Part shown: one piece after another, positions 17,337 to 49,764 of the stretch | Layout: every line of letters begins with the position of its first letter | Position numbering within the stretch: the first letter of the stretch is position 1 | Translations under genes and position numbers: made by a program | Notes under the pieces: generated by a model | The model's database searches: none | Told to the model about the DNA's origin: nothing | The model's input: the letters and a program-made list of their open reading frames with translations, nothing else | Source of the DNA: an uncultured virus (IMG/VR IMGVR_UViG_3300044701_002726) | Taxonomy: Duplodnaviria; Heunggongvirae; Uroviricota; Caudoviricetes | Virus record (IMG/VR): IMGVR_UViG_3300044701_002726 | DNA: 58,842 nt | Strand: one strand, 5' to 3'

Positions 17337-18041
17337 TTAGTCCCATAAATTCCTGTAATACTTACCAAATAATCTTGTACCGTTATTGATTCGTTCATTG
17401 TACTTTTCGTAACCTTCACGATCGAACTCTGCGGTGTGATTTGGTCCCCTCTCAAAAGTATAAAGAGTTGGTTTACCATTCTCATCCCACTCGCAAGGTA
17501 CAGACTTCATATCATGTACACCAGTATGGAATTGTGCATCATAGTCATCGTTACATAACTGTTCAAATGCCCAAATCATTTCATCAAGCACCCATTCCCA
17601 CCGAGCATGAATATCACAATTACCTTCTTTTGGTTCGTCTTCCTTATAGAAATCAAAAGTTCCTTGTGAATCATATTCTTCATGGGTAGTGTAACGAAGA
17701 TGTTCTGGTACATCTTCTAAATCTACCATAGGAGAACCATGCTTTGTCTTCTTCAACTGCTTGAGCATTGGCAGAATGATTGGAGACAATGTTTTGTCCA
17801 TGTTCCAAGTATCATAGTAATCAATCTTGACATACTCAATTCTTGGATGAACAAAATCAAGAATCTTTTGAAGCCCAACACAAATAGGATTCAGAAGATT
17901 GACAAACTTCTCATACTTGTTTTTTGGATCATCATCAAGATTGTATATAATGTCTTTGTCTTTTTCCCAAAAACAAATTTTGGTCAAAATTGTATATGGA
18001 GACAACCAATGATTACGATATTTGCTGATGTATACTTTCAC
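17337..18041 (-). CDS. Hypothetical protein
   Basis: 234-aa ORF; WEWVLDEMIWAF and LFGKYYRNLWD motifs recur in phage hypotheticals. Confidence 0.65.
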   Translation of the reverse strand: MKVYISKYRNHWLSPYTILTKICFWEKDKDIIYNLDDDPKNKYEKFVNLLNPICVGLQKILDFVHPRIEYVKIDYYDTWNMDKTLSPIILPMLKQLKKTKHGSPMVDLEDVPEHLRYTTHEEYDSQGTFDFYKEDEPKEGNCDIHARWEWVLDEMIWAFEQLCNDDYDAQFHTGVHDMKSVPCEWDENGKPTLYTFERGPNHTAEFDREGYEKYNERINNGTRLFGKYYRNLWD

Positions 18042-18054
18042 AATGTTTTCCCAT

Positions 18055-18396
18055 AAAAAATAAGTGCCGACTGATTGGGTGATAAGGTACAGTCGGCGAA
18101 ACCTCAGCTCAGCATGCTCTAGGCAGCTAAAGCGAAACGCTCATCGTTTGCGTTTATTTTATTTACTTTTTACGACTCTCTGTGTCGGATCGTCCATCTT
18201 TCTACTCTTTGCCCTGTCGAAACCAGGTCAGGCCCATTAGGAAGCATACTAAATCTGCACTTTTTCAGTCGGGGCTATCTGCTATTATGCAGCCTACCGG
18301 CAGTCCTTGACCGATCTTCATAGTATGCTTTCTGGTGGACCTGGAGGGAATCGAACCCTCGTCCAGAACACCTTTCAATTAACTTCATACGATCAT
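18055..18396 (-). ncRNA. ssrA: Circularly permuted (two-piece) tmRNA; tag peptide ANDERFALAA*
   Basis: T-arm GAGGG-TTCGATT-CCCTC + CAGGTCC-A-CCA (ends 18333) lies upstream of GGGCCTG..TTCGAC (starts 18235), with a G3.U alanine pair; tag ORF 18119-18151. Confidence 0.92.
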
Positions 18397-18402
18397 ATTA
18401 CT

Positions 18403-18431
18403 ACTATAACAGAAACTATTTATTTTGTCAA
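18403..18431 (-). promoter_or_regulatory. sigma70-type promoter for tmRNA
   Basis: TTGACA-N17-TATAGT. Confidence 0.8.
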
Positions 18432-18745
18432 GCAGGTTTACCGTTATTTGCCGGTTTAATTTCTTCGCCTGAACTGATAATACAATATGTCTTATCACCA
18501 GGAAAATATTCTACAAGAGTCCAAGATTTGGTTTCAAAATTAATATAAAGAGTAGTGTGAATCTTCATTGGTTGACTAGTAGTAACACTTTCTCTTATTG
18601 TTGCCATTTGAAATGCTGGTACTTCTTTGTATACTCTAAGCATTTCTCTCATCTGTTCTTCATCACCACAATCGATTGGGATTTGATAGTTTTGAGAAAA
18701 TGCAGCCAAAGGAAACATCATTAAAGCTGCGATTAGTGATTTCAT
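18428..18745 (-). CDS. Hypothetical secreted protein
   Basis: Signal-peptide-like N-terminus MKSLIAALMMFPLAAFS. Confidence 0.6.
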   Translation of the reverse strand: MKSLIAALMMFPLAAFSQNYQIPIDCGDEEQMREMLRVYKEVPAFQMATIRESVTTSQPMKIHTTLYINFETKSWTLVEYFPGDKTYCIISSGEEIKPANNGKPA

Positions 18746-41444: not shown

Positions 41445-41452
41445 TATTTATG
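41445..41452 (-). promoter_or_regulatory. Late promoter variant CATAAATA heading the heptose/GT operon
   Basis: A few nt upstream of ATG 41439; overlaps tRNA-Arg CCA. Confidence 0.55.
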
Positions 41453-41525
41453 GCACCACTGAGAGGAATCGAACCCCTATTCTAGGTTTAGAAGACCCAT
41501 GTCCTATCCGTTGAACGACAGTGGT
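41451..41525 (-). tRNA. tRNA-Arg(TCT)
   Basis: Cloverleaf, anticodon loop CT-TCT-AA, CCA. Confidence 0.92.
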
Positions 41526-41530
41526 ATATC

Positions 41531-41613
41531 TGGTGCGAGTGGAGGGATTCGAACCCTCAATCCAAAGGCGGCAGATTTTAAGTCTGCTGTGTATACCGTT
41601 CCACCACACTCGC
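41531..41613 (-). tRNA. tRNA-Leu(TAA)
   Basis: Loop CT-TAA-AA, variable arm, CCA. Confidence 0.93.
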
Positions 41614-41658
41614 AATAAAAACATTATAACATAAATTTGTGTTGTTTACAGGTAATAT

Positions 41659-41735
41659 TGGTGCCTCAGGAGAGATTCGAACTCTCAGAATCTTGCTTCT
41701 AAGGCAAGCATGTTTACCAATTTCATCACCGAGGC
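41659..41735 (-). tRNA. tRNA-Leu(TAG), short variable region
   Basis: CTTGC-CTTAGAA-GCAAG, CCA. Confidence 0.9.
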
Positions 41736-41737
41736 AT

Positions 41738-41813
41738 TGGTGCGACCTAGAGGAATCGAACCTCTTTCCATGGCTCTTCAGGCCACTGCTATGACCACAT
41801 CAGCTAAAGTCGC
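41738..41813 (-). tRNA. tRNA-Phe(GAA)
   Basis: Loop CT-GAA-GA, CCA. Confidence 0.92.
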
Positions 41814-41814
41814 A

Positions 41815-41889
41815 TGGTGCATCGTGAAGGTTACGCTCCCTCTACCCTCTGCTTGTAAGGCAGACGCTCTACTATTGAGCTAACGATGC
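41815..41889 (-). tRNA. tRNA-Val(TAC), non-canonical T-loop
   Basis: Loop CT-TAC-AA; T-loop AGCGTAA; CCA. Confidence 0.88.
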
Positions 41890-41890
41890 A

Positions 41891-41966
41891 TGGGGTGTCC
41901 TATGAGGATCGAACTCATACTCTCTCGTTCACAGCAAGAGGTGCAGACCACTACACTAAGGACACC
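41891..41966 (-). tRNA. tRNA-His(GTG)
   Basis: Loop CT-GTG-AA; G-1:C73; CCA. Confidence 0.92.
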
Positions 41967-41975
41967 AAGAGCATT

Positions 41976-42049
41976 TGGAGCGGCTAAAGAGAATCGAACT
42001 CTTAACTTCTGCTTGGAAGGCAGTGGTTTTACCATTAAACTACAGCCGC
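41976..42049 (-). tRNA. tRNA-Gly(TCC)
   Basis: Loop CT-TCC-AA; U73; CCA. Confidence 0.92.
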
Positions 42050-42054
42050 TTATT

Positions 42055-42363
42055 TTAATCCCAGGATGGATATCCGCCTTGAATACAAATCATCTTCATC
42101 GGACCAGAATAATCTTTCCACTCAATTACTTTACCATTCTTATCAAGAGGCCTTAGATCAGGTAGAGCAAATGTCGTTCTACCATCTCCGCCATACTTTG
42201 TACCAATAATGGAAAAGAGTGCTTCATTTCCTTTTACTTGCATGATTTGCCCACTACAAGGTGCCCAATAACGAACACCTCTATAACCAGCAAATTCTGA
42301 AATTGAACCAAGCATATCACCATCCCATGATATACCAACTGTCTGTAATAATTTTTTAATCAT
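42055..42363 (-). CDS. Stand-alone phage tail collar domain protein
   Basis: GSISEFAG...WAPCSGQ...NEALFSIIGTKYGGDGRTTFALPDLR. Confidence 0.85.
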   Translation of the reverse strand: MIKKLLQTVGISWDGDMLGSISEFAGYRGVRYWAPCSGQIMQVKGNEALFSIIGTKYGGDGRTTFALPDLRPLDKNGKVIEWKDYSGPMKMICIQGGYPSWD

Positions 42364-42372
42364 ATTTTCTCC

Positions 42373-42840
42373 TTAAGCAGCTAAACTTTTGTAACGATCA
42401 GCAGCATATGATGCCGCAAACGCTCTTGGTTTTACCATAGGAATTACATTACAAGTTCCACGAATATAACCAATTGCTTCATTGATCACGCAATTTGAAC
42501 CATGCATTTCACTTGGGTTGATATCAAGGTGGACTTCTACATCACGACCTTCTAGAACATCAGCCAACTTTAAATACATTTCAGATACCTTGTATACTTC
42601 ATTCATCAAACGGTATCTCGGACGATCTTCTTTTTGGTCATAGTCTCTTTCACGAACAACTTCACCAAAAAGTTTGCAACCGTGTTTTCCATCTTTGTGA
42701 ACAACTATAGCAATTATATAGTCAGCATGCCACACTTCATTCACTCTTAATCTTTCAGAATCACATCCAAGATAAATTTTTGTTTCTGGCGATTGTCTTG
42801 AGATGTAATCTTTCACTTCTTGTAAATTTATCTTGAACAT
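42373..42840 (-). CDS. RNase H-like (YkuK/DUF458-type) protein
   Basis: IYLGCDS, IVVH..GKHG, RLMNEV, EVHLDIN, KP.AFAASYAAD. Confidence 0.75.
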   Translation of the reverse strand: MFKINLQEVKDYISRQSPETKIYLGCDSERLRVNEVWHADYIIAIVVHKDGKHGCKLFGEVVRERDYDQKEDRPRYRLMNEVYKVSEMYLKLADVLEGRDVEVHLDINPSEMHGSNCVINEAIGYIRGTCNVIPMVKPRAFAASYAADRYKSLAA

Positions 42841-42854
42841 GATATCTCCTTAAT

Positions 42855-42928
42855 TGGCCTCGGTGGACAGAATCGAACTGCCATGACTGGTTTTGGAGAC
42901 CAGCGTAATGCCTTTATACGACACCGAG
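42855..42928 (-). tRNA. tRNA-Trp(CCA)
   Basis: CTGGT-CTCCAAA-ACCAG; CCA. Confidence 0.92.
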
Positions 42929-42945
42929 ATTAAAACTACTTATAA

Positions 42946-43019
42946 TGGTCCTTCCTGATGGTTACGATCCACCGTCTAGCGGTTATCAACCGCTTGCTCT
43001 GCCATTGAGCTAAGGAAGG
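42946..43019 (-). tRNA. tRNA-Ile(GAT), non-canonical T-loop
   Basis: Loop TT-GAT-AA; T-loop ATCGTAA. Confidence 0.9.
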
Positions 43020-43021
43020 AT

Positions 43022-43096
43022 TGGCACCACCTAAAGGAATCAAACCCTTTCTACAATGTCCGTAGCATTGCGTGCTATTCAGTACACTAAGGTGGT
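43022..43096 (-). tRNA. tRNA-Arg(ACG)
   Basis: CAATG-CTACGGA-CATTG; CCA. Confidence 0.9.
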
Positions 43097-43103
43097 ATAA
43101 TTA

Positions 43104-43180
43104 TGGTCTGGGTAGAGAGGATCGAACTCCCGACCTCCTGCTCCCAAAGCAGGCGCACTACCTGGCTGTGCTATACCCAG
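43104..43180 (-). tRNA. tRNA-Pro(TGG)
   Basis: CCTGC-TTTGGGA-GCAGG; CCA. Confidence 0.93.
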
Positions 43181-43189
43181 ACGAAACTT

Positions 43190-43264
43190 TGGTGCCCCCG
43201 GAGAGATTTGAACTCCCGACCGCTCGCTTACAAGGCGAGAACTCTACCACTGAGCTACAGGGGC
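43190..43264 (-). tRNA. tRNA-Thr(TGT)
   Basis: CTCGC-CTTGTAA-GCGAG; CCA. Confidence 0.93.
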
Positions 43265-43269
43265 AAAAC

Positions 43270-43346
43270 TGGTGGCGATGGAAGGATTCGAGCCTTCGAT
43301 CTTTTCCGTATGAAGGAACTGCATTTGACCGCTATGCTACATCGCC
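43270..43346 (-). tRNA. tRNA-Met(CAT), elongator-type
   Basis: Loop TT-CAT-AC; paired G1-C72; CCA. Confidence 0.88.
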
Positions 43347-43516
43347 ATTAGTGAGAGTACTATCATATCTGTTTAAGGACACTTTTCAGTCCTCTCTGCA
43401 TCCCTTAGACTCACCACAAGTCTCGCACCAACGGCGTGGATTCATGCAAAGATGAGTACTACCACGATAGTCTGGCTGCTGGTTAGGCACTTCGTTCTAC
43501 AGACTCTCACTAATGG
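43345..43516 (-). ncRNA. Structured inter-tRNA element closed by a 14-bp terminal stem
   Basis: CCATTAGTGAGAGT...ACTCTCACTAATGG with several internal hairpins. Confidence 0.55.
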
Positions 43517-43588
43517 CTCCAGAGGTAGGGATCGAACCTACGACACACGGATTAACAGTCCGCTGATCTACCGCTGATCTACTCTGGA
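43514..43588 (-). tRNA. tRNA-Asn(GTT)
   Basis: GCGGA-CTGTTAA-TCCGT; CCA. Confidence 0.93.
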
Positions 43589-43590
43589 AC

Positions 43591-43782
43591 AGGTGCTTCC
43601 TCTCTGCGGTGGTAATTATAGTGTCTCCAGTTTCGAACCCTTCAACGACACCTTCCACCCACTTCACGACCAAAGAGAATTCTCGCATTGCCAGCGCCAT
43701 TTGCTCCAAATGGTAAGGTCCTGTGGGTATCACACCACTTCTCGACATGCGGACCACACTAGCCGTTGATTAGACGGCACGT
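43591..43782 (-). ncRNA. Large multi-stem ncRNA (~190 nt), possibly the manA RNA motif
   Basis: Stems GCCGT/ACGGC, GGTCC/GGACC, CCATTT/AAATGG, GTGTC/GACAC, closing GTGC/GCAC; size and tRNA-array context fit manA. Confidence 0.55.
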
Positions 43783-43783
43783 T

Positions 43784-43857
43784 TGGTAGCGGGTAGCCGA
43801 ATTGCACGACTAACTACAGCTTATGAGACTGTCGAGATACTATTTCTCTAACCCGCA
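43784..43857 (-). tRNA. tRNA-Met(CAT), initiator-like
   Basis: Unpaired 1:72, loop CT-CAT-AA, T-loop TGCAATT; lacks the three G-C anticodon-stem pairs. Confidence 0.82.
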
Positions 43858-43863
43858 ACAACT

Positions 43864-43938
43864 TGGCACCGTAGACGGGAATCGAACCCGCCGCAGTCTC
43901 ATAGACAGTGAGATATCACCCCAGGTGGCCTCTACGGT
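43864..43938 (-). tRNA. tRNA-Asp(GTC)
   Basis: TCTCA-CTGTCTA-TGAGA; G73; weak D-arm. Confidence 0.87.
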
Positions 43939-43943
43939 ATGAA

Positions 43944-44018
43944 TGGTAGGCGCACGGAGAATCGAACTCCGGTCAATAGATTAAAAGTCTACTGCTTTAA
44001 CCCCTAAGCTATACGCCC
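43944..44018 (-). tRNA. tRNA-Lys(TTT)
   Basis: Loop CT-TTT-AA; CCA. Confidence 0.92.
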
Positions 44019-44024
44019 AAAATT

Positions 44025-44132
44025 TGGTGCTATGTCCAACCTTGCAAGTAGGACTCTAATCGCAGTTTGAGAGGCATCGTTCCTAGGATCGAGAGGCACA
44101 TCCTGCCACAGCGTAAAGCGACGCTGTGCATC
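44025..44132 (-). ncRNA. Non-tRNA structured RNA ending in ACCA
   Basis: Hairpins ACAGCGT/ACGCTGT, AGGAT/ATCCT, GTCC/GGAC; TGCCTCTC twice. Confidence 0.5.
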
Positions 44133-44133
44133 T

Positions 44134-44209
44134 TGGTGGAGAGTATCGGGTTCGAACCGATGACCTCCTGCTTGCAAAGCAGGCGTTCTCCCAACTGAAC
44201 TAACTCCCC
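44134..44209 (-). tRNA. tRNA-Ala(TGC)
   Basis: CCTGC-TTTGCAA-GCAGG; G3.U70; CCA. Confidence 0.94.
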
Positions 44210-44270
44210 ATATTGAAACACACTATGCCACGCTCTGAACCTGGACTCTTAGTAATGTGTTCGAATATGG
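44208..44270. repeat. Hairpin cassette copy 1
   Basis: CCATATTGAAACACACT...AATGTGTTCGAATATGG. Confidence 0.75.
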
Positions 44271-44432
44271 TGTTGCTTGTTCCCGTCCGTCGGGCCAATG
44301 TGTCGGGCTTTATTGCTCTCTACCTATTCAGCCATTCCCATCGTCGAGAGTCAATGGGAAACATCTTGACACACCATCTAACTTAGATTACTTTGCCATT
44401 AGGCGTTTCATCTACTAGCAGTCAGCAAACCA
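44268..44432 (-). ncRNA. Non-tRNA structured RNA (~160 nt) ending in ACCA
   Basis: Stems TTGCT/AGCAA, TGTGTC/GACACA, TTCCCAT/ATGGGAA, ATCTA/TAGAT. Confidence 0.5.
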
Positions 44433-44537
44433 TATTGAAGCACACTGACAGTATCGAAACTGCCCACACCGCCGAAAGACGATGCTAGGTCCACTCCCAA
44501 GGCCGGCGCCGTCTAGCCTTAGTGTGCTTCAATATGG
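44430..44537. repeat. Hairpin cassette copy 2 (perfect 17-bp terminal inverted repeat, internal T-arm-like hairpin)
   Basis: CCATATTGAAGCACACT...AGTGTGCTTCAATATGG. Confidence 0.85.
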
Positions 44538-44646
44538 TGACCGGTGCTGTTTTTCCGGCTTTGCTGGTTTTGTCCTTTTGGGCTTGTCCAGCGGAACACC
44601 ACGGCTTTTCACCGTTGATCCTGCGTATCAGCCTACGCCTTCACCA
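44535..44646 (-). ncRNA. Non-tRNA structured RNA (~110 nt) ending in ACCA
   Basis: TGGTGA/TCACCA closure; GCGTA/TACGC, ACGG/CCGT, GCTGG/CCAGC, CCGG/CCGG hairpins. Confidence 0.5.
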
Positions 44647-44722
44647 TATTGAAGCACACTTAGACTACTACCCTACTCGATCATAGACTTTCAGAGCTTC
44701 ACCCAAATGTGCTTCAATATGG
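44644..44722. repeat. Hairpin cassette copy 3
   Basis: CCATATTGAAGCACACTT...AAATGTGCTTCAATATGG. Confidence 0.85.
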
Positions 44723-44807
44723 TGGGTGGTGATGGTAACGCTCCACGAGGCAACTTCCGATCTTATTATGCCGACGGTTTTACAGACCGCTGACCGGGGC
44801 ACCACCC
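44720..44807 (-). tRNA. Atypical tRNA-Tyr(GTA): no D-arm, 8/4 fold, long variable arm
   Basis: GCGGT-CTGTAAA-ACCGT anticodon arm; GGGTGGTG/CACCACCC-A-CCA acceptor. Confidence 0.7.
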
Positions 44808-44815
44808 ATATTCTT

Positions 44816-44938
44816 CCATTTGAAATGCTGACTGCACTATTTGCTATGTCGCACCAGACTTATCATGATTTACTGGTATATTGTCATAGTTACTCAGGTT
44901 TGATCATACCCGTGGCTTACAATCAGCATATCAAATGG
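44816..44938. repeat. Hairpin cassette copy 4 (diverged)
   Basis: CCATTTGAAATGCTGACTG...CAATCAGCATATCAAATGG. Confidence 0.65.
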
Positions 44939-45011
44939 TACACCTAGGGGGAATCGAACCCGCCGTTTATGCCTTGAAAGGGCATCGTCCTAACCGTTAG
45001 ACGATAGGTGC
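44936..45011 (-). tRNA. tRNA-Glu(TTC)
   Basis: ATGCC-CTTTCAA-GGCAT; CCA. Confidence 0.92.
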
Positions 45012-45026
45012 AAGTAACAACACAAA

Positions 45027-45039
45027 TTTTTAAAGAACA
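45027..45039 (-). promoter_or_regulatory. rrn-type boxA antitermination element
   Basis: TGTTCTTTAAAAA between promoter and first tRNA. Confidence 0.75.
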
Positions 45040-45060
45040 ATTCATCACATCATGTAGATC

Positions 45061-45113
45061 ATTATACACTAAACCTACGAATTGTCAACTACTACTGTTG
45101 TAAAAAAACAACA
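45061..45113 (-). promoter_or_regulatory. Internal tRNA-array promoter TTGACA-N16-TATAAT with TGTTG-N8-CAACA box (45096-45113)
   Basis: Motifs read directly. Confidence 0.82.
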
Positions 45114-45116
45114 AAG

Positions 45117-45194
45117 TGGAAGTACGGGTCGGATTCGAACCGACGAATCGTGAGTTTTGCAGGCTCCGCCATTAGACCGCTCTGGTACCGTACT
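45117..45194 (-). tRNA. tRNA-Cys(GCA)
   Basis: Loop CT-GCA-AA; U73; CCA. Confidence 0.9.
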
Positions 45195-45199
45195 ATAAC

Positions 45200-45289
45200 T
45201 GGTGGAGAATCAGGGAGTCGAACCCTGTGACCCTATTTCTAGAATCTACGGATTAGCAATCCGCTGCATTACCATCCTGCCCATTCTCC
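45200..45289 (-). tRNA. tRNA-Ser(GCT)
   Basis: Loop TT-GCT-AA; long variable arm; CCA. Confidence 0.92.
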
Positions 45290-45293
45290 GAAT

Positions 45294-45385
45294 TGGTGGA
45301 AGCGGTGAGATTCGAACTCACGGGCCACTTTCATGACCGACAGTTTTCAAGACTGTTGCAATAAACCGGACTCTGCCACACTTCC
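45294..45385 (-). tRNA. tRNA-Ser(TGA)
   Basis: Loop CT-TGA-AA; long variable arm; CCA. Confidence 0.92.
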
Positions 45386-45459
45386 ATATGGAAACACATT
45401 GCCAAGTAGAGCCATGGTATCTTGTGCGGGAGCAACCCCTACAATGTGCTTTCATATGG
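45384..45459. repeat. Hairpin cassette copy 5
   Basis: CCATATGGAAACACATTG...CAATGTGCTTTCATATGG. Confidence 0.75.
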
Positions 45460-45551
45460 TCCTTGGACTAGGATTCGAACCTAGATCATCCCCTCATCTA
45501 GAGGCATCGCCGAGGTATAAGCTCGGAGTTTTACCATTAAACTATCCAAGG
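45457..45551 (-). tRNA. Atypical tRNA with TAT anticodon (Ile-UAU) and 25-nt variable arm
   Basis: CCGAG-CTTATAC-CTCGG; variable hairpin CCTC-TAGAT-GAGG; canonical T-arm; CCA. Confidence 0.8.
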
Positions 45552-45553
45552 AT

Positions 45554-45631
45554 TGGTGGGGGATACTGGATTCGAACCAGTGAATGTCGGATTCAAAATC
45601 CGATGCCTTAGACCAGCTTGGCTAATCCCCT
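45554..45631 (-). tRNA. tRNA-Gln(TTG)
   Basis: TCGGA-TTTTGAA-TCCGA; CCA. Confidence 0.92.
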
Positions 45632-45646
45632 AATAAACAACACAAA

Positions 45647-45659
45647 TTTTTAAAGAGCG
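45647..45659 (-). promoter_or_regulatory. rrn-type boxA antitermination element
   Basis: CGCTCTTTAAAAA right after the attenuator; shares 21 nt with the 45027 copy. Confidence 0.75.
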
Positions 45660-45660
45660 G

Positions 45661-45698
45661 AAAACAAAAACCCCCGAATTTTTTAGGTTCGGGGGTTT
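45661..45698 (-). terminator. Attenuator terminator upstream of the tRNA array
   Basis: AAACCCCCGAA-N9-TTCGGGGGTTT then TTGTTTT. Confidence 0.88.
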
Positions 45699-45723
45699 GT
45701 GTGAAAAACGATTAAAACTATTT

Positions 45724-45840
45724 TTACGCAAACCCCCCAATATCACTAAAATTGCAATTTGGTGAGCGATACTCAGCCTGCCATGTGCCTGTTGCACTGG
45801 CCTTGAGAGTAATTGTAGTGAAATGTAAGGAAGTTTTCAT
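45724..45840 (-). CDS. Putative attenuator leader peptide, 38 aa (MKTSLHFTTITLKASATGTWQAEYRSPNCNFSDIGGFA)
   Basis: Starts ~10 nt below the -10 box; last codons form the 5' arm of an antiterminator. Confidence 0.7.
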   Translation of the reverse strand: MKTSLHFTTITLKASATGTWQAEYRSPNCNFSDIGGFA

Positions 45841-45849
45841 AGTTTTATA

Positions 45850-45878
45850 AGTGTATCAGTGTATTTAGTAAAAGTCAA
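45850..45878 (-). promoter_or_regulatory. tRNA operon promoter TTGACT-N17-TACACT with embedded late ACTAAATA (45862-45869)
   Basis: Motifs read directly. Confidence 0.75.
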
Positions 45879-45907: not shown

Positions 45908-46393
45908 TTACGGTTGAATAGGCCAATTCACTATCTTTGGGAATTCCGATTGTTGAGGTATTTCTCTTAAAAATTTTCGGTATTCAATCCATTGTTGTTT
46001 AATGGCATCTGGAATAGGAGAATCCGGCATAACAGTCCAATCTGATTTTGCCAATAATTCGTCTCTCTTCTTCCTCACTTCACTTGATTTATAATCGAGC
46101 ATTTCTTGTCTACTCTCTGGAGATCGTTGAGTGGGAACATGATTCTTATACCATTTGCCATCATCACCTTTAGTTGGAACACCCTCACTATATTCGTATT
46201 CAATCCAATCATATTCTATTTGTAAATGATGAACTAAAACATATCCACTAGGCAAAGGTTTAGTTTCATCATAAAATTTATCTAAATTTTCATCTACTTT
46301 AGCTATCTCTGGGTACTCTTTAATCAAGACTCCTTCAGGTACTGGATACTCCAATACATTATCATTAGAATCTATTTTAGCAAAAAATCTCAT
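45908..46393 (-). CDS. Tail fibre assembly chaperone-like protein
   Basis: VRKKRDELLAKSDWTVMPDSP...WIEYRKFLREIPQQSEFP..VNWP.QP. Confidence 0.8.
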   Translation of the reverse strand: MRFFAKIDSNDNVLEYPVPEGVLIKEYPEIAKVDENLDKFYDETKPLPSGYVLVHHLQIEYDWIEYEYSEGVPTKGDDGKWYKNHVPTQRSPESRQEMLDYKSSEVRKKRDELLAKSDWTVMPDSPIPDAIKQQWIEYRKFLREIPQQSEFPKIVNWPIQP

Positions 46394-46402
46394 ATACTTT
46401 CC

Positions 46403-46867
46403 TTATTGATCTTCTGAAGTTATTTGAACTATATCCAACAAATTTAATGGAACCCAAGCAGAATCTCCATTCTCATTTTGAATCTCTTTAGCAACTCTTG
46501 GTTGCATAGTTTCCAAAGTTTGTTTGACAACATCAACTATACTTTGACGCATTTCACTTTCAGTTTCATATGTAGTATACATTCCAGTAATAGGATTAAA
46601 AACTTGATATTTTTCTAACATCGTTACTTGCTCTCCATTGTAATAAACATACTCTTTACTTTTTTTAAGTTTATCAAACCATTCTAACCACCCAGTTGTA
46701 CTTTGTGGATTAGCTTCTATATATTCTAATAAAACATTTCTACCATAATCCCAATCTATGTACGGACTATATTCAAAATCAAGTTGGAATGTATTTTTAG
46801 TCCATTCATAAGCTTCATCACAAACTCCATTATCTTTTAAGAATTCTAAAGAAAGTCTCTGTATCAT
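46403..46867 (-). CDS. Hypothetical tail-fibre-associated protein
   Basis: Between fibre and chaperone, translationally coupled. Confidence 0.6.
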   Translation of the reverse strand: MIQRLSLEFLKDNGVCDEAYEWTKNTFQLDFEYSPYIDWDYGRNVLLEYIEANPQSTTGWLEWFDKLKKSKEYVYYNGEQVTMLEKYQVFNPITGMYTTYETESEMRQSIVDVVKQTLETMQPRVAKEIQNENGDSAWVPLNLLDIVQITSEDQ

Positions 46868-49764
46868 ACTACTGCTCCAAAAACACGATTAGTTGGGAAA
46901 CCCCCAATCCAAGTTACTGTAACGCCGTTAATTGTTTGTATAGATGGCCCACCAGAACTTGCTGGTGTTTCACTGTTGTTAAAAGAGATTCCCCCACCAG
47001 CAGCACCAAATCCACCACCTCCAGCACCACCGTGTGGATAAACATTTTTGTATACCAAAGGACTACCTCCAGCTACACCAGCAGAACCTCCGGCTCCACT
47101 TGATTTGGGAGTTACATTAAAAGCTAAAGAACAAGCACCAGATCCTCCACCTGTTCCACCAATACCACCACCTTGTTGGTTAGTTACTGCTGGAGCTCCA
47201 ACTCCAGGAAATACTCTACCGCCACCGCCACCTCCAAATATATTGAAATCTGGACCAGAAACGGCAGTTCCGTTTGCACCAGAATTACCAATTGATCCAC
47301 CAGCACCACCTTGTGCAAAATTGCCAGAAAAATAACCAACTCCGCCAATACCACCACCTTGACCACCGCCTCCACCAACGGTATAGCCATTTACGTCGTT
47401 TATATATGATGCACCTCCTCCACCACCGCCTCCAATATATCCATTTGAACTATTAATGTTTAATTCAACTGATGTTAGTATTGCTGGCCCACCATTTTGA
47501 CCAGCAACATTCTGAAGACTAGGAACAGCATTTCCAGCATTTCCAGCATTACCTCCTCTACCCATTATATACCCATAGTTTTCTATCACTAATCCGTTTG
47601 GAAAATTACCATCAATAGTTAGTGCTGGAACAGAGGTGTTATCACTCCAAATGTAAACACCAGAATTGACTGTCACATATACAGGGTTAACTCCATTCCA
47701 ACCTTGTGCCAACAACCAATTTCTCAAATTCAATTCTTGTTGATTTGTAGTTATAGTATAGTATTCTGTTGTAGATGAAGAGGGAGCCGTAGCATATGTC
47801 GTATTTGGGTATGATGATGTTTTAGTAATTGGATTACCCTGTGAAGTAGCCCATCCCAACCAATTGGATGGTGTACTTACAGTAAAGTCTGATTTGACAT
47901 CATAAATGTTGTGGTAATCTCTCATTATATAATATGGATTATATAAAATAAGTCCATTATCATACATATATTTGGAAATTGTCTTATATGTCACATTACC
48001 ATAAATTTGATCTCCATACCTTGGTTGAGGATCAGGCGATCTTGGAGGATCTCCAACTTTTTGGTACCAGACATTCGTCAAATAATAATTGATCTCTGAA
48101 AATACTGGCATAATTGTCAACATCAAATCATTTTTAGTTGAAGTTTTACTTCTAGAAGTCGCAGCTAATCCAATTCTTTTTTTATTAGTCTTCTGTTGAA
48201 ATACAGAAGAATAGTTATATAAATCCAAAAACATATTAGTTTCAGTATAGGTATTATCTCTTATATACCAAGTAGCACGACCAGAACCTTCTTCCGTGTT
48301 AGTATTTGTAGTACTGGTAGTTGCAACAATTATTCTTCCGCCAGTAAGAGACAAAGTAGTATTTTCAGGTTCTAATAATTGTGTGCTGAAATTTATAACT
48401 GTTCCAGTATCAGAAGGATTTCTATTTCTTGTGGTTGGAAATACAATTGGACTATCTTCATCAATAACAAAAGAAGCTATTGGTCGAATCTCAGAATTCC
48501 AAGTATCTGGGTCAGGATTATACCATACAACAGAACTTTGAGCATATCCTTTTGGACTAGAAGAAGGCCATCCAGAACTTATCTCAAAAGGATCTGGATT
48601 CTGAGTAGGAAGAGTAAATTCTCCAGTTCCATCCATTTCAAATCTTACATTCCATATTCTATTATTGTGATATTTGTTAGATACTCCATTAGCAGTATTT
48701 CTTTTTAAAGCAAGACCATATACACCCCCACCAGAATCAGAATCAGTCAAAACACATTCATAATAGTCAGCAGAATAGTCATCCGTTGGATAAGTTCCAT
48801 TCTGATATTCCCAACCATATTTTACAAGAGCACCATTTGTAGCATTAAAACCTAGAAGTAGAAATGCTCCTTTATTCAATACCCCAGTTGCATTAGGATA
48901 ATCATTTGCTACTACTGCTATATACAAACGATTTCTAGCTCCATCATGCATAAAACTACTTATTTTCATATACTTAAGTGAAGTAAATCCCGCTTGAGGT
49001 GAATCAGGTGGAACCCCAAATCTAATGGCCCAATTTATAGATGAAGAATCTGAAATACTACTTATTGGACCATTAAACTTCATTAAAATAAGGTCACTTG
49101 CAATATTTCTATTTCTAGCGACCATATAAACATCATCATTATTTTTATCTTTAGCCCAATGTGCATCAATTAAATTGAAATTTGAAGATGTAACGCTTCT
49201 ATGTTTTACAGTAAGAAGACTTTTATCATATTCTAAAATGTATGCTCTAGAACGATCACTTGCATTTGCTGGTTCGTCAAATCCACCAACGGCAAAATTA
49301 CCAGTCGAAGTACTAAAGGAAGTAGTGTGCGTAGGTTTAGTAGTAGTGATAGCTCCAATTTTAAAAGCCCACAATTCTGTACCATCACGTTCGAAAACAG
49401 CAGTTGGCATTACCCAAGTCTGTAATGATGTATCATAATTTGTACTAGAAAAGAAAAACAATCCATCGTTATTAATAGAACCAACTGGGGTATCTAAAGA
49501 TGATGAAGAAGACCATTTTTTTGTAAAAATACCAACTAAATCAACTTTTGCTAAATCTAAAGCTGAAATTGAACCACTAGAAGGTACATTGCCCCTAAAT
49601 CCACTCACACCTGTAGGGACATAGGGGCCTCCTGAATAGTACTCAGTTAAACCTATTGGATTTGCACCACCAAATTCAATTTGTATGTCTGTAAAATTGA
49701 TATTTGTGTTGGCAATTCCTATTCCAGTGGCTCTGTTTGGTATTCTGAAATCTTGTGTTGACAT
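46864..49764 (-). CDS. Tail fibre/receptor-binding protein with glycine-rich C-terminus
   Basis: IQIEFGGANPIGLTEYY...VPSSGSIS N-terminal motif; gp38-like Gly-rich tail; late ACTAAATA at 49794-49801. Confidence 0.75.
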   Translation of the reverse strand: MSTQDFRIPNRATGIGIANTNINFTDIQIEFGGANPIGLTEYYSGGPYVPTGVSGFRGNVPSSGSISALDLAKVDLVGIFTKKWSSSSSLDTPVGSINNDGLFFFSSTNYDTSLQTWVMPTAVFERDGTELWAFKIGAITTTKPTHTTSFSTSTGNFAVGGFDEPANASDRSRAYILEYDKSLLTVKHRSVTSSNFNLIDAHWAKDKNNDDVYMVARNRNIASDLILMKFNGPISSISDSSSINWAIRFGVPPDSPQAGFTSLKYMKISSFMHDGARNRLYIAVVANDYPNATGVLNKGAFLLLGFNATNGALVKYGWEYQNGTYPTDDYSADYYECVLTDSDSGGGVYGLALKRNTANGVSNKYHNNRIWNVRFEMDGTGEFTLPTQNPDPFEISSGWPSSSPKGYAQSSVVWYNPDPDTWNSEIRPIASFVIDEDSPIVFPTTRNRNPSDTGTVINFSTQLLEPENTTLSLTGGRIIVATTSTTNTNTEEGSGRATWYIRDNTYTETNMFLDLYNYSSVFQQKTNKKRIGLAATSRSKTSTKNDLMLTIMPVFSEINYYLTNVWYQKVGDPPRSPDPQPRYGDQIYGNVTYKTISKYMYDNGLILYNPYYIMRDYHNIYDVKSDFTVSTPSNWLGWATSQGNPITKTSSYPNTTYATAPSSSTTEYYTITTNQQELNLRNWLLAQGWNGVNPVYVTVNSGVYIWSDNTSVPALTIDGNFPNGLVIENYGYIMGRGGNAGNAGNAVPSLQNVAGQNGGPAILTSVELNINSSNGYIGGGGGGGASYINDVNGYTVGGGGGQGGGIGGVGYFSGNFAQGGAGGSIGNSGANGTAVSGPDFNIFGGGGGGRVFPGVGAPAVTNQQGGGIGGTGGGSGACSLAFNVTPKSSGAGGSAGVAGGSPLVYKNVYPHGGAGGGGFGAAGGGISFNNSETPASSGGPSIQTINGVTVTWIGGFPTNRVFGAVV

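Follow-up and report, generated by a model that had tools for sequence, protein, structure and literature searches.

A probable translation-sensing transcription attenuator with leader peptides of high amino-acid diversity at the head of a tRNA array in a T4-like phage

Why phages carry tRNA arrays and how they regulate them are standing questions. Current ideas include codon compensation and escape from tRNA-targeting defences (PMC10264068). The window, by which we mean the whole stretch of 58,842 nucleotides analysed, is DNA of an uncultured freshwater phage that encodes 25 tRNAs and a tmRNA, and it is identified as a T4-like myovirus by its PHROG matches, which include wedge and hub proteins of the baseplate, tail-fibre proteins and a single-strand DNA-binding protein of the gp32 type. 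Its tmRNA is permuted and of the betaproteobacterial type, which hints at a betaproteobacterial host; the metagenomes that contain the stretch are from freshwater and the subsurface, and no RNA run was listed among the datasets that contain it. Immediately ahead of the first tRNA lies a module made up of a promoter, a short open reading frame (ORF) and a terminator. The analysis presented below suggests that this module is probably a ribosome-mediated (leader-peptide) attenuator of transcription, which would sense translation at the head of the phage tRNA array.

The module is set among the following features.

45908-46393, minus strand: tail-fibre assembly chaperone gene (PHROG match), directly upstream of the leader module
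45631-45554, minus strand: tRNA-Gln(ttg), first of the 25 tRNAs (tRNA annotation)
45117..45631, minus strand: the first five tRNAs, Gln(ttg), Ile(tat), Ser(tga), Ser(gct) and Cys(gca)
45088-45061, minus strand: internal promoter with 12/12 consensus matches, located after the fifth tRNA and before tRNA-Glu and the remaining array
45038-45027, minus strand: second boxA-like motif, after the internal promoter and ahead of tRNA-Glu
41451..45011, minus strand: the other 19 tRNA genes of the array, reachable by read-through and from the internal promoter

The tail-fibre and chaperone genes upstream (45908-49764) run on the same strand as the array. In the pattern scan listing, the leader promoter is the sole promoter-like site upstream of the first five tRNAs. 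The first-pass annotation of this DNA had held that an internal promoter at 45061 leaves only the first five tRNAs wholly dependent on the module, and the position of the 12/12 promoter after the fifth tRNA bears this out; given that promoter, most of the array appears to be independent of the switch.

The module itself consists of the following elements.

45850..45878, minus strand: sigma-70-type promoter, with -35 TTGACT at 45878-45873, a 17-nt spacer and -10 TACACT at 45855-45850
45724..45840, minus strand: leader ORF of 38 codons plus TAA, with the ATG at 45840 and the TAA at 45726-45724
45725..45738, minus strand: region 2, the G-rich 5' strand of the antiterminator, formed by the final four sense codons and the beginning of the stop codon
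45688..45703, minus strand: region 3, the C-rich strand, partner of region 2 (antiterminator) or of the 3' arm (terminator)
45698-45688 with 45678-45668, minus strand: GC-rich terminator stem of 11 bp, with a 9-nt loop at 45687-45679
45661..45678, minus strand: region 4, comprising the terminator 3' arm (45678-45668) and the T tract (45667-45661)
45647..45659, minus strand: boxA-like 13-mer between the terminator and the first tRNA

All of the elements first described for this locus, namely a promoter TTGACT-N17-TACACT, a nearly leaderless 38-codon ORF that uses 19 of the 20 amino acids and lacks Val, a terminator, a boxA site and the first tRNA, in this order on the minus strand, were found in place, the boxA site as the 13-mer listed above. 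The terminator had been missed by our pattern scan, since the loop limit of that scan was 8. The leader promoter has 9/12 consensus matches and a TG ahead of the -10 element (pattern scan), and it is the weakest promoter of the module family, whose other members have 10-12/12 matches at an equal position and with equal 17-nt spacing. The ATG lies 9 nt past the -10 element, so that the 5' UTR is predicted to be 0-3 nt long, and no Shine-Dalgarno sequence precedes the leader ORF of the window. From the 9-nt spacing a 5' UTR of 2-3 nt is predicted, and such a length is suboptimal for leaderless initiation. Taken alone, the presence of 19 residue types within 38 residues is mildly unusual (P = 0.032, given the composition of the window proteome), and the weight of the composition argument therefore comes from the relatives discussed below.

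What joins the ORF to the terminator is the complementarity between the end of the one and the flank of the other. Pairing of 45738-45725 with 45703-45691 yields a duplex of -19.7 kcal/mol, which was matched by 0/300 dinucleotide shuffles of the leader, and the partner strand overlaps the 5' arm of the terminator; the proposal that the final codons take part in a fold that excludes the terminator thus holds. Folding of both conformers gave the antiterminator for the transcript without the terminator 3' arm (-44.3 kcal/mol) and the terminator for the full-length transcript (-55.2 kcal/mol, z = -5.1). As local hairpins the two are approximately equal in stability, at -20.9 kcal/mol for the antiterminator versus -19.1 kcal/mol for the terminator, whose hairpin energy in the window is -16.1 to -19.1 kcal/mol.

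The geometry of the locus had been likened to that of the trp and his attenuators. The mutual exclusivity of antiterminator and terminator and the position of the ORF end on the antiterminator strand agree with that comparison, but the conserved anti-antiterminator is missing and the scheme has two states. In the window, no significant partner for region 2 was found that could serve as region 1 (p = 0.75), and none was found in the other leaderless members. The full-transcript fold does pair the 5' end with the G strand; as this pairing is neither significant nor conserved in the leaderless class, a trp-like region 1:2 was rejected for the window. A search of the leader against Rfam returned no family at threshold, with Thr_leader matching the terminator hairpin below threshold (26.9 bits against a gathering score of 55), and no T-box was found in the leader region.

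Comparison with close relatives offers little variation. One nearly identical IMG/VR contig differs by 2 substitutions in ~600 aligned bases, one of which is synonymous in the leader ORF, and the metagenome DNA contigs that align to the stretch contain only two variants, both already present in L001. The region is absent from the nearest virus record (G001), and a DNA search of 50,697 cultured phage records found no close relatives except over tRNA-Gln. More distant relatives were gathered by means of a 155-residue protein encoded inside the array (42373-42840), which led to 80 related loci at 70-82% identity, all of them with tRNA arrays. In these, the DNA upstream of the first tRNA-Gln has strongly diverged and the genes further upstream vary by lineage. 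The module is kept in these T4-like contigs despite that divergence, as a promoter, an in-frame short ORF, a G-rich strand, a C-rich strand and a terminator. Loss of the ORF and antiterminator in relatives that keep the terminator had been named as an outcome that would speak against an attenuator, and the diverged relatives instead retain promoter, ORF, antiterminator and terminator together. The module is missing at 15 of 26 related array starts, where the end of a gene or an ordinary promoter precedes the tRNA.

Further members were sought with several motifs. A DNA motif within the ORF, scanned over IMG/VR, gave 32 matches, 18 of which are module loci, and in all 18 of these leader-bearing matches a tRNA starts 84-115 nt past the ORF stop. 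A second DNA motif returned mostly chance matches, with the module in 1/21. A covariance model of the switch (R1) located six additional places among the loci and none in 33 chance-match loci; on the tRNA regions of the cultured phages DLP_6, BUCT-ZZ01, BUDD and Astolliot it produced a single weak match, in BUDD (23.4 bits), which was not counted as a member. A scan for the two antiterminator strands that was blind to the peptide gave 38 loci, of which 30 have an ORF plus a T tract or a tRNA, and a tRNA lies 31-148 nt after the switch motif in 29 of these 30 module-bearing loci. Among 185,579 prokaryote genomes, a three-part switch motif had a single match, ahead of a leuA-like gene of a metagenome-assembled genome (MAG), and this match was rejected as a tRNA module because its target is not a tRNA. 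So sparse a representation indicates that the module in its present form is a phage feature. The leader ORFs are almost never annotated.

Conservation of the switch is expressed in its geometry and in its base pairs. In 22/22 sequences the stop codon lies 20-30 nt ahead of the terminator 5' arm, and in 22/22 the best partner of the C strand anywhere in the leader is the 3' end of the ORF (each p <= 0.01, 300 shuffles). Measured from the first base of the stop codon, this partner strand ends at -17 to +4 nt in all 22, and at -2 to +4 nt in 18 of them. ORF length varies from 23 to 47 codons among the relatives, and the frame always ends at the G strand. Hairpin energies range from -11 to -27 kcal/mol for the antiterminators and from -12 to -21 kcal/mol for the terminators. 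Compensatory changes in the stems, which had been suggested as a check, were evaluated on 21 sequences aligned with plain MAFFT, with no fitting to structure, and both helices covary. For the antiterminator, 74% of cells are paired, changes on both sides occur at 10/16 pairs, and the covariation score is 0.209 compared with <=0.101 for slid partners (0/500 shuffles as high); for the terminator, 84.6% are paired and the score is 0.320 compared with <=0.173. Among the antiterminator pairs beyond the terminator stem (columns 31-35 with 67-71), 11 cells are changed on both sides, which argues that the upstream strand is not a mere by-product of the terminator. In pairs of close relatives, non-synonymous changes in the leader ORF equal or exceed synonymous ones, and the peptide itself is thus hardly conserved.

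Start signals divide the family. The distance from the -10 element to the ATG is 6 nt in eight sequences, 7 in one and 9 in five, the window included, and a spacing of 6-9 nt is what would be expected of leaderless or nearly leaderless mRNAs. In another six the distance is 31-33 nt, and a purine-rich stretch stands ahead of the ATG; for the remaining two, the 70 nt that were examined missed the real promoter. Where the 5' UTR is 31-33 nt long, the G strand can find an upstream partner in codons 2-8 (-14.5 to -16.1 kcal/mol, p = 0.03-0.14), and this class appears to possess the full trp-like scheme of three states.

These features suggest a course of events that is drawn from sequence and predicted folds. 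Host RNA polymerase would start at the leader promoter, giving an mRNA that begins at the AUG or within ~3 nt of it, and a ribosome would translate the 38-codon leader, for which it would require 19 of the 20 kinds of aminoacyl-tRNA. The last leader codons would double as the 5' strand of the antiterminator, the 3' strand of which is the 5' arm of the terminator. A ribosome that keeps pace and reaches the stop codon before the polymerase passes the T tract would cover the G strand, so that the C strand would pair with the 3' arm and transcription would terminate ~180 nt from its start. If the ribosome is late at any codon, or is never loaded, the antiterminator, slightly more stable than the terminator, would form first, and the polymerase would run past the boxA-like element into the tRNAs. 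The leader would in this way act as a race timer for overall decoding capacity, and phage tRNA output would rise when any charged tRNA is short. Since the leaderless class has no conserved upstream partner for the G strand, its default in the untranslated state would be read-through, and transcripts that enter untranslated from the tail-fibre genes upstream would by default continue past the terminator. Translation of the ORF, the choice between termination and read-through and the physiological trigger are all inferred.

The residue content of the leaders bears on what such a timer might measure. That the leader samples nearly every amino acid was first noticed in the window, and the pattern proved much stronger in the relatives, many of whose tRNA arrays are indeed preceded by short ORFs of high amino-acid diversity. 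All 20 amino acids occur in 28 of 40 distinct leader peptides of 23-47 residues, where 0.19 would be expected from the window proteome composition (P is 2e-4 for a single peptide of 31 residues to have all 20, and 1.5e-2 for one of 47); five more have 19 types and the others 13-18. Two loci had been dropped before this count, L141 for lacking both a T tract and a tRNA and L164 for lying at a contig end, and L023, L024 and L031, found first through a high-diversity screen, form a biased part of the 40. The 40 peptides fall into 17 clusters at 60% identity, 11 of which hold members with all 20 types. When leaders were picked by position upstream of tRNA-Gln, ignoring the peptide, 8/11 had all 20, as did 15/21 of those picked by the RNA-switch motif alone. 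A short subfamily has only 13-17 types, with 14-17 in the members upstream of tRNA-Leu.

The residue set persists as the sequence changes. L025 and L100 differ by seven non-synonymous codon changes and one synonymous change, and both keep 20 types; between L041 and L045, His and Arg are exchanged between positions 5 and 15. Retention of the 20 types in close pairs is weak evidence by itself (P per pair 0.09-0.61, with pairs that are non-independent). Removal of the last five codons, which spell the G strand, still leaves 19-20 types in 27 of the 28 all-20 leaders. Val is confined to these codons in 17 of the 28, which makes the window leader, with 19 types and no Val, a typical member of the family; its tail appears to spell the G strand with codons other than those of Val. 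A stall at a Val codon found only in the tail would still mask the antiterminator strand, and this counts against the attenuator reading.

It is possible that such 'pangram' leaders have been selected to contain every amino acid, so that they would meter the whole charged-tRNA pool and switch on the array upon depletion of any tRNA, a reading that we put forward tentatively and with somewhat less than even confidence. Host tRNA-cleaving defence nucleases or the decay of host tRNAs during infection would be possible causes of such depletion, and induction of the array by host tRNA cleavage in particular is speculation. A sensor of this kind could not distinguish a shortage of amino acids from a loss of tRNAs. 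Of the leader codons, a fraction of 0.76 is readable by the tRNAs that the phage encodes, versus 0.76 for the phage genes, with similar values in 12 other loci; a match of leader codons to phage tRNAs was accordingly rejected, and the equality of the two fractions gives no indication of dedicated feedback on the phage tRNAs.

The same lack of a match is compatible with an attenuator that senses the general state of translation (ribosome availability, an inhibitor or host shut-off) rather than the charged-tRNA pool, the leader composition being incidental or reflecting a nascent-peptide effect. Read-through would depend on the arrival time of the ribosome whatever its cause, the leaderless class would read through by default when ribosomes are lacking, and attenuators of resistance genes are reported to respond to general stalling (PMC4191407; PMC4335068). 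This alternative leaves unexplained why the full set of 20 amino acids occurs in 28 of 40 leaders when 0.19 would be expected, why the diversity survives outside the last five codons in all but one of those 28, and why the regulated genes are tRNAs, and we consider it unlikely.

A second alternative dispenses with attenuation. Here the module would be a small gene in its own right, for a micro-protein or a small RNA of ~180 nt, that has its own promoter and terminator and merely adjoins the array; the ORF end would pair with the terminator flank as a side effect of an A-tract/U-tract terminator. Such a gene would account for the separate sigma-70 promoters found between terminator and first tRNA in L055, L057, L058 and L075, for the protein gene downstream of the terminator in L031 and L008, and for an internal promoter in the window that does not depend on the attenuator. 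Two peptides of the leader family are also annotated as hypothetical proteins in a collection of 5.8 billion proteins. A folded functional protein would not, however, be expected to evolve as rapidly as these peptides while preserving a set of 20 residue types. Nor does a self-contained gene agree with covariation that reaches antiterminator pairs outside the terminator stem, with a stop codon that is always at the antiterminator strand, or with the same-strand tRNA that follows the module in 18/18 and 29/30 loci, and we regard this alternative as improbable.

The notion that the hairpin serves simply to end the operon of tail-fibre and chaperone genes upstream, with the promoter and ORF as chance features of an AT-rich spacer, draws on the shared strand of the 45908-49764 genes, between which and the tRNAs no other terminator was found, on the modest P = 0.032 of the window ORF taken alone and on a similar terminator directly after a protein gene in L003, L004 and L006, but it appears very improbable and is strongly disfavoured by upstream genes that vary by lineage while the tRNA array keeps its promoter, ORF and switch, by the conserved 17-nt spacer and fixed promoter-to-ATG distance, and by an ORF conserved in frame over lengths of 23-47 codons.

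A translation-sensing attenuator, the reading that we prefer, would share much with known systems. Leader-peptide attenuators of amino-acid operons include trpL, hisL, pheL, thrL, leuL and the multivalent ilv and thr leaders. Like these, the module has a promoter-proximal short ORF, a terminator ahead of the genes under control and an antiterminator that has one strand in common with that terminator, and ribosome position would set the fold, with termination when the ribosome is at the stop and read-through when it stalls. Unlike them, it precedes phage tRNAs rather than biosynthetic enzymes, has 19-20 amino acids in place of a single-codon run or an enrichment for the amino acid produced, and has an ORF that runs through the antiterminator strand; the class to which the window belongs is also leaderless, with no conserved region 1 and with two states rather than three. 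T-box riboswitches bind one uncharged tRNA directly, without translation, and control synthetase or amino-acid genes. The module is proposed likewise to couple tRNA charging to terminator read-through, although its sensing would go through translation, and Rfam finds no T-box in it.

Leaderless attenuators have a precedent in mycobacteria, where leaderless short ORFs with poly-cysteine reportedly act as attenuators responsive to the amino acid (bioRxiv 10.1101/834739). As in our module, a leaderless short ORF at the 5' end of the transcript attenuates the genes downstream, whereas the mycobacterial examples described there respond to a single amino acid by way of consecutive Cys codons and regulate operons of protein-coding genes (bioRxiv 10.1101/834739). 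Ribosome-stalling attenuators of resistance genes, such as those of bmrCD (PMC4191407) and mef/mel (PMC4335068), also combine a leader ORF with alternative hairpins that respond to slowed ribosomes in general. They reportedly differ in that a ribosome-bound drug is the trigger, often together with a specific arrest peptide, in that their targets are efflux or protection proteins, and in that their leaders are not described as containing all amino acids.

The boxA-like elements may offer a further parallel. A possible likeness to boxA/Nus antitermination of rRNA operons is that a boxA-like 12-mer stands after both promoters feeding the array. This degenerate 12-mer, scored with a boxA consensus, occurs twice in the window compared with 0.42 expected, each time between a promoter and tRNAs, and a boxA-like motif follows the terminator in 14 of 22 relatives, which may point to rrn-like processive antitermination through the array. 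Unlike the boxA of rrn operons, the first such site in the window is downstream of the attenuator terminator and cannot override it.

Relative to known attenuators, it is the spread over 19-20 amino acids in place of a codon run that sets the module apart as a variant. Among full texts outside subscription journals, our literature search found no attenuator or leader peptide described ahead of phage tRNA genes and no leader described as containing all amino acids, in agreement with the statement in the first-pass annotation that no phage equivalent was known.

In summary, the head of this phage tRNA array carries a conserved module that probably attenuates transcription in response to translation. 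If the bolder reading, in which 'pangram' leaders meter the charged-tRNA pool, is true, the module would give viral tRNA genes their first described cis-regulatory control, and it would embody a new sensing logic in which selection acts on the composition of the leader instead of on a run of one codon. Such selection, under which the residue set is kept while the sequence drifts, is of a type seldom looked for and could be used to find further translation-sensing leaders. For the phage, a leader that needs all amino acids and is wired to the terminator of the tRNA array would constitute a built-in gauge of decoding capacity.

A second entry into the tRNA array of the window is formed by an internal promoter that matches the consensus at all 12 of 12 positions; a second boxA-like 12-mer lies downstream of it, immediately 5' of tRNA-Glu. 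A promoter and a boxA-like motif are thus paired at each entry into the array. The window features considered here are:

45027-45088, minus strand: internal promoter, then second boxA-like 12-mer
45457-45551, minus strand: tRNA-Ile, anticodon tat, 95 nt
44210-44935, minus strand: 725-nt stretch within the tRNA array
42373-42840, minus strand: 155-residue protein, phrog_11311, within the tRNA array
18028-18445, minus strand: permuted tmRNA of betaproteobacterial type (Rfam and ARAGORN)

The length of tRNA-Ile(tat) is such as though a long extra arm were present, and the annotation of Stenotrophomonas phage DLP_6 also holds a tRNA-Ile-TAT, of 92 nt. The 725-nt stretch contained no tRNA, no ORF of more than 73 codons and no Rfam match. 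For the phrog_11311 protein, which is labelled DUF458 or ribonuclease in some phage records, 520 relatives were found in IMG/VR, and all 80 of the loci kept for these relatives lie in or beside tRNA arrays.

Outside the window, matches to the covariance model of the antiterminator/terminator switch (R1) occurred in several settings:

L081:2810-2940, plus strand: second, shorter module of this relative, with a 24-codon ORF (R1, 27 bits)
L003:1553-1651, L004:4935-5033 and L006:3416-3514, plus strand: R1 matches at protein-gene ends
L138:9784-9964, plus strand: weak match in Xanthomonas phage BUDD (23.4 bits)

The shorter L081 module stands directly 5' of a Leu(tag)-Leu(taa) tRNA pair, and 5 of the 24 codons of its leader specify Leu, four of them being read by these adjoining tRNAs. 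A short leader resembling it likewise precedes tRNA-Leu(tag) in L034. At L003, L004 and L006, the G-rich 5' strand of the antiterminator falls within the last codons of an ordinary ORF of 48-62 codons that ends a protein gene, with a similar terminator downstream and then a promoter and tRNA-Tyr; these sites may represent either a terminator coupled to translation or a forerunner of the leader module. The BUDD match spans a 39-codon ORF using 18 residue types and a hairpin with a T tract. Some 310 nt downstream begins a series of 33 tRNAs, which the annotation of that record does not include.

When 185,579 prokaryote genomes were scanned with the three-part switch motif, the sole match was on the minus strand of L178, a MAG contig whose leader is partly N-masked. 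A leuA-like gene begins approximately 190 nt downstream, and this match may be a classical leucine attenuator.

The window tmRNA scored 139.6 bits with Rfam beta_tmRNA and 130.5 bits with tmRNA_permuted, and its tag peptide, as predicted by ARAGORN, ends in ALAA. Taken together with the 25 tRNAs, the presence of this tmRNA suggests that the phage invests heavily in keeping translation going and, given its type, that the host is betaproteobacterial.
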